A stretch of 64,000 bases of DNA from Escherichia phage tootiki: the sequence record MN850647.1; one strand, 5' to 3'. Below the pieces are notes generated by a model that made no database searches, was not told the DNA's origin, and saw only the letters and a list, made by a program, of their open reading frames with translations. The position numbers and the translations under genes are program-made. Of this stretch, positions 41,970 to 42,633 are shown piece after piece. Each line of letters starts with the position of its first letter. Position 1 is the stretch's first letter.

Positions 41970-42052
41970 TGGCATGGGACGGAGGAGTTGAACCACTTTG
42001 AAACGGTTTTGGAGGCCGTTGCTCATGCCTTAGAGTCTTAACATCGTCCCAC
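41970..42052 (-). tRNA. tRNA-like gene, possibly tRNA-Trp (anticodon CCA); noncanonical fold
   Basis: Acceptor GTGGGAC/GTCCCAT and T-loop TTCAACT present; candidate anticodon hairpin with loop CTCCAAA; T-stem and D-region do not fit the standard register by hand. Confidence 0.35.
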
Positions 42053-42189
42053 ACTATAATTCGAAGCTTACCGTATTTTCACAACACTGTAAAGCCCCTT
42101 CTCAGATTATTTACATGTTCTGGAAAACATGAGATACAGACCACCTCCTTACAGGAAGACCCGCTTAGGTCGTCTAAGTAATCTGCTAA

Positions 42190-42537
42190 CTAATACTTTG
42201 CATGTCTTACCCTATGGCAATTTGAACATAGCAAAACACATTTGTCAAGTTCATCTTTTAGTTCTTGAGAGAACTTAAGGCTTTTCCTATGACCAATGTT
42301 AAAATCTTTATCTGAAGGATTCAAATGATGGAAGTCATACACTGCTGGATGATATTTCTTACCACAATCATGACAAACCCCACCTTTGTACTCAATAGCT
42401 GAGAGTTTAAGTGCTCTTTGTCTTTCTATGGTTTGCTCATTAACACACTTTTTACAGTATGAATGAGTTCTCCTACCATCTTTCATGTAGAAATCATTTT
42501 CATCCTTGCTAAGTTTGCACCTAATACAAGTTTTCAT
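42190..42537 (-). CDS. HNH endonuclease
   Basis: Cys-rich motifs CIRCK...CKKC...CHDCG and CSNCHRVRH; start at internal ATG 42537 preceded by GGAGA, which avoids overlap with the adjacent tRNA-like gene. Confidence 0.7.
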   Translation of the reverse strand: MKTCIRCKLSKDENDFYMKDGRRTHSYCKKCVNEQTIERQRALKLSAIEYKGGVCHDCGKKYHPAVYDFHHLNPSDKDFNIGHRKSLKFSQELKDELDKCVLLCSNCHRVRHAKY

Positions 42538-42551
42538 GATTTCTCCAAAAT

Positions 42552-42633
42552 TGGTCGAGGCGGCAGGACTCGAACCCGCATACTCCACTTACTCGGTTAA
42601 CGTCTGTTTAGAAGACAGATGAGATACGCCCCG
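42552..42633 (-). tRNA. tRNA-like gene, possibly tRNA-Arg (anticodon TCT); noncanonical fold
   Basis: Acceptor CGGGGCG/CGCCTCG and T-arm GCGGG-TTCGAGT-CCTGC; hairpin TCTGT-CTTCTAA-ACAGA lies too close to the 5' end for a standard D-arm. Confidence 0.35.

Follow-up and report, generated by a model that had tools for sequence, protein, structure and literature searches.

The subject of this analysis is a pair of tRNA-like genes in a 64,000-nucleotide stretch of Escherichia phage tootiki (sequence record MN850647.1), referred to below as the window. The phage is a Felixounavirus (Ounavirinae), and its nearest relative is Escherichia phage bumzen (MN850635), with 98.5% identity across the tRNA array. 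In the window ARAGORN finds 24 tRNAs for 18 amino acids on the minus strand (39017–44210), Trp and Arg being absent from the calls. The two genes lie within this array:

41970–42052, minus strand: element 1, an 83-nt gene of the tRNA-Trp(CCA) type that has G73 and encodes its CCA (alignment A2; 108 bits with its own-family covariance model, R2).
42552–42633, minus strand: element 2, an 82-nt gene of the tRNA-Arg(UCU) type whose D arm is permuted and whose CCA is encoded (alignment A1; 33.4 bits with the Rfam tRNA model, the D arm being deleted; 100.7 bits with its own-family covariance model, R1).

Both loci had been pointed out in an earlier note made from the letters alone, and its coordinates are borne out, with both genes on the minus strand. 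The anticodons proposed there, CCA (Trp) and UCU (Arg), are indeed read in the anticodon loops of elements 1 and 2, and these are the only amino acids missing from the array, since neither is among the 24 ARAGORN calls. The misfit to the standard D-arm/anticodon register is likewise confirmed: both architectures are non-canonical, ARAGORN makes no call at 41970–42052 or 42552–42633, and a clean canonical cloverleaf was looked for with covariance models and given by none of them. The acceptor stems and T-arms, described as good, are so in both elements except for a U.U mismatch in the T stem of the window's element 1. As to the structure prediction suggested in the note, single-sequence folding was of no help, with energies no better than those of shuffled controls (z = −0.56 and +0.04), and the helices found by comparison are supported. 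The support is therefore comparative and not thermodynamic.

Each element is conserved in more than 200 phage genomes, and ordinary tRNAs reach at most 42 bits with the own-family models, with which the elements themselves score above 100; a chance match is thereby excluded for both. Both genes have a 7-bp acceptor stem, a discriminator, an encoded CCA and a T arm with a UUCRANY loop, and their stems covary. Comparison shows each to fold into acceptor, anticodon and T helices, which compensatory substitutions preserve. Both loci are probably genuine, selectively maintained tRNA genes of non-canonical architecture within the minus-strand array. The hedged wording of the note, unusual but functional tRNAs or decoys, stands up well, as the architecture is non-canonical and its evolution preserves structure.

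Element 2 is described first. Its Rfam match (42555–42633; gathering score 29) leaves 4 nt in place of the 15 nt of the model's D arm, inserts 20 nt in the variable region and gives CUUCUAA as the anticodon loop. The comparative reading of the gene, in the order of its chain, is as follows:

42627–42633, minus strand: 5′ strand of the acceptor stem, CGGGGCG, pairing with 42556–42562 (CGCCUCG).
42624–42626, minus strand: UAU, invariant, corresponding to U8/A21/U22.
42621–42623, minus strand: CUC, the D-stem strand of 3′ type (positions 23–25), covarying with GAG.
42620, minus strand: A26.
42603–42619, minus strand: anticodon arm UCUGU-CUUCUAA-ACAGA, in which all stem pairs covary; anticodon UCU at 42610–42612.
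42595–42602, minus strand: linker CGUUAACC from the anticodon stem to the relocated D-stem strand, 8 nt here and 3–13 nt across the family.
42580–42594, minus strand: relocated D half, made up of GAG, the D loop, A20 and the GUAU that leads to the T stem.
42592–42594, minus strand: GAG, the D-stem strand of 5′ type (positions 10–12), pairing with CUC in five pair-type combinations.
42585–42591, minus strand: D loop UAAGUGG, with A14, A15, G18 and G19.
42584, minus strand: A corresponding to A20.
42580, minus strand: U48, the end of GUAU leading to the T stem.
42563–42579, minus strand: T arm GCGGG-UUCGAGU-CCUGC, with compensatory changes in 4/5 pairs.
42555, minus strand: discriminator A.
42552–42554, minus strand: CCA.

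All seven acceptor pairs show compensatory changes (99.4% of cells paired in 47 family sequences). The anticodon arm has canonical dimensions (5-bp stem, 7-nt loop), and phage Sf16 has exactly the same loop in its canonical tRNA-Arg(UCU). Two segments are nearly invariant in the family, G7-UAUCUCA, which directly follows the acceptor stem, and GAGUAANUGGA, which comes past the anticodon arm; UAU remains invariant in scans whose search pattern omitted it. The contiguous sequence GAG-UAAUGG-UAU-CUC-A is the ordinary D arm of canonical phage tRNAs caught in the same scan. As judged from these motifs, element 2 carries that canonical D arm cut in two, with the halves flanking the anticodon arm.

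A D stem formed across the anticodon arm was tested by a scan in which both triplets were left free in the pattern, so that retrieval was independent of their complementarity. Among 49 distinct sequences the D-stem types are CUC/GAG (43), CGC/GCG (2), CAC/GUG (2), CCC/GGG (1, found by the family model in a diverged member) and CUU/AAG (1), so that all four Watson–Crick combinations occur at the middle pair. The only non-complementary match of the free-triplet scan lacks every other tRNA feature and is not a tRNA. The equivalent of the Levitt pair 15/48 is A/U in 48 sequences and G/C in the one that has G15. In alignment A1 (47 sequences) 98.5% of cells are paired, against 35–47% with slid partners, and 18 of the 20 pairs show double changes; this alignment was filtered for paired stems, which inflates the percentages and counts against them, and the free-triplet scan is the unbiased evidence. 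Comparative analysis thus shows, as far as covariation can, that the D stem of element 2 would form by long-range CUC/GAG pairing. Two rival folds were rejected. Pairing of CUC with the second GAG (in UGGAGU) has zero double changes and breaks when CUC varies; the local mini-hairpin YCG/UGG, which is the minimum free energy (MFE) structure of ViennaRNA, also has zero double changes and breaks in the variants.

In element 2 the anticodon arm lies between the two D-stem strands, which are 26 nt apart and do not form a local hairpin. Because the whole anticodon arm separates them, the molecule would be a three-way junction and not a four-way cloverleaf. The predicted chain runs from the 5′ acceptor strand through the 3′ D strand, the anticodon arm, the 5′ D strand with the D loop and the T arm to the 3′ acceptor strand. 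In the canonical L-shape, residue 43/44 stacks on the 10:25 pair with the correct polarity, and residue 21 is next to U8. For the first of these reasons, the joining of 43 to 10 would give a continuous helix, in which positions 43 to 10 could form one strand stacked on the anticodon stem. The usual core (U8–A14, A15–U48, G18/G19 to the T loop) could form despite the changed connectivity, and the rewired chain can in principle rebuild a normal tRNA core.

Comparison with known systems brings out what is unusual here. The features shared with the canonical class I and II tRNAs of bacteria and phages (RF00005) are the acceptor stem, discriminator and CCA, a T arm whose loop is UUCRA, U33 and A37 in the anticodon arm, a D stem, and a D loop with A14, R15, G18 and G19. 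Element 2 also shares the D-arm motif GAG-UAANUGG...UAU-CUC-A of canonical phage tRNAs, which is contiguous there and is split by the whole anticodon arm in element 2. In linear order, with few nucleotides between the acceptor and anticodon stems, element 2 resembles D-armless mitochondrial tRNAs such as mt-tRNA-Ser(AGY) (PMC9427863, PMC4394434), which lack the covarying D stem and full D loop that element 2 gains from the segment 3′ of its anticodon arm. A D-armless reading is ruled out by the D-stem covariation and the D loop with GG. Moreover, those tRNAs are organellar, whereas element 2 belongs to phages of bacteria.

In circularly permuted and split tRNA genes, cleavage and ligation restore the normal connectivity, and the gene ends lie inside the tRNA. 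Such genes of Cyanidioschyzon and archaea (reviewed in PMC4090602) resemble element 2 in that the order of tRNA segments is rearranged at the gene level. In contrast to them, element 2 has terminal acceptor strands and no bulge-helix-bulge motif. A circularly permuted gene was rejected for both elements, as their 5′ and 3′ acceptor strands stand at the two gene ends in normal order. The rearrangement of element 2 is accordingly expected to persist in the mature RNA. Element 2 is not an allo-tRNA either. No published account of the permuted D arm was found, and on rearranged phage tRNAs in general nothing of relevance came up beyond Mukai et al. 2017, the coverage of the literature being incomplete and an earlier description possible.

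Relatives of element 2 with about 85% identity (BLAST) occur outside the Ounavirinae in many unrelated large phages: Klebsiella Sugarlandvirus-like phages, Serratia phage Kamaji (Demerecviridae), phi92-like phages, Mydovirus KB57 and Asteriusvirus jumbo phages. A few records annotate them as "tRNA-OTHER" or as "tRNA" with no amino acid. Model R1 defines the family as acceptor-UAU-NNN-A-anticodon arm-linker-NNN′-UAANNGG-...-T arm with NNN and NNN′ complementary, a definition that element 2 fits. After IMG/VR scans the family counts 49 distinct sequences, many of them from IMG/VR contigs. A scan of 185,579 bacterial and archaeal species (one genome each) gave three true members, all on contigs of metagenome-assembled genomes; the family is essentially viral.

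Four diverged genes belong here. On one contig (L044) two copies, 12999–13080 and 13348–13429, and on two others (L059 2689–2766; L097 5928–6007) single copies were found. One contig carries CCU and UCU copies, the D stem of the UCU copy being imperfect (GCC/AGC); among the other members, one has the anticodon ACG and one has UAU with the D stem CCC/GGG. In addition, L188 1612–1702 and L044 6269–6364 are tRNA-Ile(UAU) genes of 91–96 nt whose D arm is canonical and whose variable arm is long, which is unusual for Ile.

The anticodons of the family are UCU (42), CCU (2) and ACG (1), all of them Arg, and UAU (4). The base that follows G18G19 is A in 45/45 members with Arg anticodons and U in 4/4 UAU members; the latter all have A73. 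The identity set of E. coli arginyl-tRNA synthetase (ArgRS) comprises A20, C35 and U/G36, and A20, C35 and U36 are all present in element 2. The slot of element 2, between tRNA-Ile and element 1, is filled by a canonical tRNA-Arg(UCU) in Mooglevirus (Sf16, ESh22, Mijalis, Sf18) and also in the Pectobacterium Ounavirinae Arno162 and Wc4-1. Ten of 11 large arrays that hold the permuted UCU gene carry no canonical UCU gene within the fetched stretch (partial contigs), the exception being L036.

A canonical tRNA-Arg(ACG) unit is present in bumzen and absent from the window, which is therefore without any canonical Arg tRNA. In bumzen this gene (L004 2576–2651) sits between tRNA-Leu(CAA) and the next ORF; the corresponding site in the window is at about 40934–40960 on the minus strand. 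The 81-nt difference between the two phages is flanked by CCAATTT repeats, which follow the CCA end of each tRNA; their position at its boundaries suggests that short-repeat recombination added or removed a whole tRNA unit. AGA, which is among the rarest codons of E. coli, accounts for 271 of the 625 Arg codons (43%) in the window's long ORFs and is the commonest Arg codon of the phage. The RNA of element 2 would mature to the CCA end that its gene encodes, receive arginine from host ArgRS through the retained A20, C35 and U36, and serve to read AGA.

These data bear on another explanation, in which both elements are tRNA mimics outside translation, decoys or sponges that would occupy host defence nucleases directed at tRNAs, or some other factor that binds tRNA. 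An authentic anticodon arm would then be presented on a body that needs no charging. The strict conservation of the anticodon loops would suit this role, as would an architecture unlike that normally met by synthetases and EF-Tu, and canonical and non-canonical copies do occur side by side in some genomes (L036; KB57-type phages). That tRNA-cleaving defences can be countered by phage tRNAs is already known (PMC10264068, PMC11464382, PMC11555353). On the other side, the features related to charging follow the anticodon (A20 with Arg anticodons, U with UAU, A73 in the UAU members), and apart from the UAU members anticodon changes are confined to Arg (UCU, CCU, ACG). Acceptor stems, discriminator and CCA are all maintained; the permuted gene replaces, and does not supplement, the canonical tRNA-Arg(UCU) of the slot; and element 2 is the window's only Arg-type tRNA gene in the face of the high share of AGA. 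A decoy role appears unlikely. A working decoder is favoured for element 2 by the anticodon/A20 pattern, the slot replacement, the lack of a canonical UCU gene in ten of the 11 arrays and the share of AGA. Circumstantial evidence of this kind favours real decoding over decoys for both genes, especially for element 2, and both are most likely functional decoders.

Element 1 departs from the canonical form in a different way. It has zero matches to the Rfam tRNA model; its only match is to tRNA-Sec (RF01852) at 41976–42050, with 21.3 bits (E = 0.17) against a gathering score of 47, and a tRNA-Sec identity was rejected. Its parts, again in chain order, are:

42045–42052, minus strand: 5′ strand of the acceptor stem, GUGGGAC plus G8, pairing in the RNAalifold consensus with 41974–41981 (CGUCCCAU).
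42036–42044, minus strand: connector AUGUUAAGA, 9 nt against the canonical 2, invariant in 10 distinct sequences.
42022–42035, minus strand: D hairpin CUC-UAAGGCAU-GAG, with 3 bp and an 8-nt loop.
42002–42020, minus strand: anticodon arm AACGG-CCUCCAAAA-CCGUU, with a 5-bp stem and a 9-nt loop; anticodon CCA at 42010–42012.
41982–41996, minus strand: T arm GUGG-UUCAACU-CCUC, with a 4-bp stem that contains the U.U mismatch in the window; pair 50:64 covaries (G–C to U–A).

In the family of element 1 (10 distinct sequences) 95.6% of cells are paired, against 31–56% with slid partners, and eight pairs show double changes; the compensatory changes fall in four helices. Acceptor pairs 1:72 and 2:71 covary. 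The pairing of G8 with C in the RNAalifold consensus, together with A.C at position 49/65 in 10/10 sequences, gives an apparent 8-bp acceptor and 4-bp T stem (8/4 branch); as the G8–C pair is invariant and has no covariation, the eighth acceptor pair is not proven. The D hairpin is preceded by a connector of 9–10 nt, unlike the canonical register, and its middle pair is U–A in five distinct sequences and A–U in five (CAU/GUG in Arno162). A candidate pseudoknot of connector AUGUU with D-loop GGCAU is compatible with 10/10 sequences and shows one-sided changes only. Four of the five anticodon-stem pairs have compensatory changes, and in the loop C-CUCCAAA-A the outermost bases (C/A; C/C in Arno162) never pair. 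The variable region has 5 nt. The T-stem mismatch is confined to the window/bumzen subgroup, most relatives having GGGG/CCUC.

Compared with canonical tRNAs, element 1 has a stretch of 9 nt, not 2, from the acceptor to the D stem; its anticodon loop is 9 nt long, and its branch is apparently 8/4 in place of 7/5. Its closest known counterparts are the (8/4) and (9/3) allo-tRNAs and the phage 8/4 tRNA-Ser and tRNA-His (Mukai et al. 2017, PMC5389517), where 8/4 tRNAs with an "extra loop" are also mentioned. Element 1 appears to share with the 8/4 tRNAs a 12-bp branch and a six-layer anticodon stem, and it occurs like them in phage tRNA clusters. Allo-tRNAs differ in their Ser identity, their long variable arm and a long D stem closed by a tetraloop (PMC5389517). 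The variable region of element 1 is short, its D stem has 3 bp and a loop of 8 nt, its 5′ connector is long, and its features are of Trp type.

Homologues of element 1 are present in 235 records of Ounavirinae (Felixouna-, Moogle- and Suspvirus) and, at 75% identity, in two Pectobacterium phages; IMG/VR scans found no relatives beyond the Ounavirinae. Its Trp-type features are the CCA anticodon, G73 and, in most relatives, A1–U72 (G1.U72 in the window), all of which belong to the generally known rules of Trp identity. Element 1 would accordingly be the phage's tRNA-Trp, an assignment we infer from these features. In phage VpaE1_ev78 its slot holds a different, ARAGORN-callable tRNA-Trp(CCA) of 71 nt and a different HNH-like ORF (L001 769–1258), which looks like a cassette replacement by a homing endonuclease. 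Sf14 has been reported with 26 tRNAs for 19 amino acids (PMC12482277), a count consistent with a gene of the element 1 type missed by tRNAscan-SE.

Similar non-canonical Trp(CCA)-like genes were found in an LPML1-like Ounavirinae contig (L038 89–171, plus strand), a phi92-like phage (L023 9267–9348, plus strand) and a Mydovirus (L048 3624–3704, minus strand). They have an 8-bp acceptor, a 4-bp T stem, an A/U-rich connector of 7–10 nt, a 6-bp anticodon stem and a D stem of 5–6 bp with a 3-nt loop (UGG or CGG), and like element 1 they appear to share the common traits of the 8/4 tRNAs. The segment lengths of the L038 gene are the same as those of element 1. A scan for the L038/L023 type gave four loci.

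The shape of element 1 raises the question of recoding: with its CCA anticodon it might read UGA or a four-base codon, so that some phage genes would be translated with read-through or a frameshift. Enlarged anticodon loops are a classic feature of frameshift suppressors, and element 1 combines a 9-nt loop with a remodelled 8–26 region. UGA readers are also known to arise from tRNA-Trp(CCA) by changes outside the anticodon (the Hirsh G24A, A9C, a 4-bp anticodon stem; PMC13092985), and element 1 is like them in its CCA anticodon and its change of the D/anticodon stems. In the published readers, however, it is the top of the anticodon stem that is unpaired. There element 1 has Watson–Crick pairs (A–U/G–C) that covary, and its unpaired position is the loop-proximal 31/39. 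Ten of the 67 long ORFs of the window end with TGA; read-through would extend nine of these by 0–12 codons and one by 86 open codons, and no recoding site was found in the window. Recoding is distinctly unlikely, and ordinary decoding of Trp codons remains the preferred reading.

Two further features accompany the genes:

42190–42540, minus strand: free-standing HNH endonuclease ORF of 116 aa between the elements; its GGAG ribosome-binding site lies 7 nt beyond the CCA with which element 2 ends.
42838–42866, minus strand: promoter-like site TTGACA-17-TATAGT upstream of element 2, by consensus match only (11/12 positions).

The match of the HNH ORF to the classic Pfam HNH model is below threshold (17.5 bits; cut-off 21.4). 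The ORF is optional: in garuso, momo and allfine it is absent, and both elements are kept about 135 nt apart. The deposited coding sequence bumzen_2 has a GTG start inside element 2, with an overlap of about 48 nt (window 42541–42588, minus strand). The ATG at 42540, with the GGAG 7 nt past the CCA, is the likelier start, and the mis-annotation was probably caused by the unrecognised tRNA. HNH genes stand directly 3′ of the permuted tRNA in three lineages (L005 1598–2107; L009 1584–2147; the window), so this flank appears to be a recurrent insertion site. Those of phages Riker and Kamaji are of the HNH_3 type, 51% identical to each other and unrelated to that of the Felixounaviruses. Relatives of element 2 in A4, phi92 and KB57 have no HNH neighbour. 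A single mobile cassette of tRNA and HNH gene was rejected on these two grounds.

This arrangement might suggest that both elements are decaying tRNA pseudogenes, scars of homing endonucleases, or mere RNase P/RNase Z signals that release the HNH mRNA. Rejection by tRNA finders, the HNH genes adjoining element 2 in three lineages, folding energies at the level of shuffled controls and the T-stem mismatch of element 1 would fit. Such a reading is very improbable, as it is largely refuted by the many compensatory substitutions that keep the helices across genera and families; furthermore, the HNH genes are unrelated between lineages, some relatives of element 2 have no such neighbour, and HNH-less Felixounaviruses retain both elements. 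For a processing signal, the conserved anticodon loop, A20 and the restriction to Arg anticodons would be needless. The elements are thus better read as maintained tRNA genes.

Several points weigh against reading the two loci as working tRNAs with rewired chains. The nearest-neighbour energy of element 2 is −19.3 kcal/mol with the 3-bp long-range D stem and −20.3 without it (MFE −21.9), and RNAalifold did not predict this stem on the family alignment; canonical D stems are also stabilised by tertiary contacts. The D-stem covariation comes from about seven variant sequences, perhaps five independent events, and the three-dimensional compatibility is argued from canonical tRNA geometry and not from a model. 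The co-occurrence loci are partial contigs. Redundancy exists: in L036 a canonical tRNA-Arg(UCU) adjoins the permuted gene, and KB57-type phages carry a canonical tRNA-Trp plus a non-canonical Trp-like gene. In the window the mismatch of element 1 falls in a T stem of already only 4 bp, and among active bacterial elongator tRNAs no proven precedent is known for its connector of 9 nt or its anticodon loop of the same length.

Of the two, element 2 is the greater surprise, its variant being topological, widespread and supported by covariation. As a tentative and rather doubtful proposal, it could stand for a class of tRNAs, specific to phages and active in translation, whose chain topology departs from the universal cloverleaf through the transfer of half the D arm to the variable-region side, and element 1 for a second rewired class. 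The rewiring might be an adaptation that keeps charging and decoding, while host immunity directed at tRNAs, or the phage's own attack on those of the host, would act on these molecules only poorly. The connectivity of the tRNA cloverleaf is among the most conserved features of biology, and the known exceptions are mostly arm losses in mitochondria or gene-level permutations repaired during processing. If the proposal holds, the L-shape would be reachable through another topology, with the same helices and a different strand order; synthetic biologists would gain a new orthogonal scaffold, and a systematic blind spot of tRNA finders would be exposed. The family also bears on the question of why phages carry tRNAs, as it is concentrated on AGA, AGG and AUA, the rarest codons of enterobacterial hosts. 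Reports on Felix O1-like phages routinely list no Trp, and often no Arg(UCU), tRNAs, Sf14 with its 19 amino acids being an example (PMC12482277).

In the rest of the array, models R1 and R2 and Rfam at E ≤ 1 found no further cryptic tRNA-like genes. Two of the ARAGORN calls, the second tRNA-Met (43882–43958, minus strand) and tRNA-Tyr (43631–43718, minus strand), are poorly matched by Rfam. The former has zero Rfam tRNA match even at E ≤ 1, a U1.C72 mismatch and the anticodon loop CUCAUUA (U37); the latter is under the Rfam threshold and matches only tRNA-Sec (29.6 bits). Outside the array, the plus-strand segments 5961–6244 and 6829–7333 drew attention through an Rfam group I intron match (61.3 bits, above threshold) and a nearby ORF that ends with TGA and is followed by 86 in-frame open codons.

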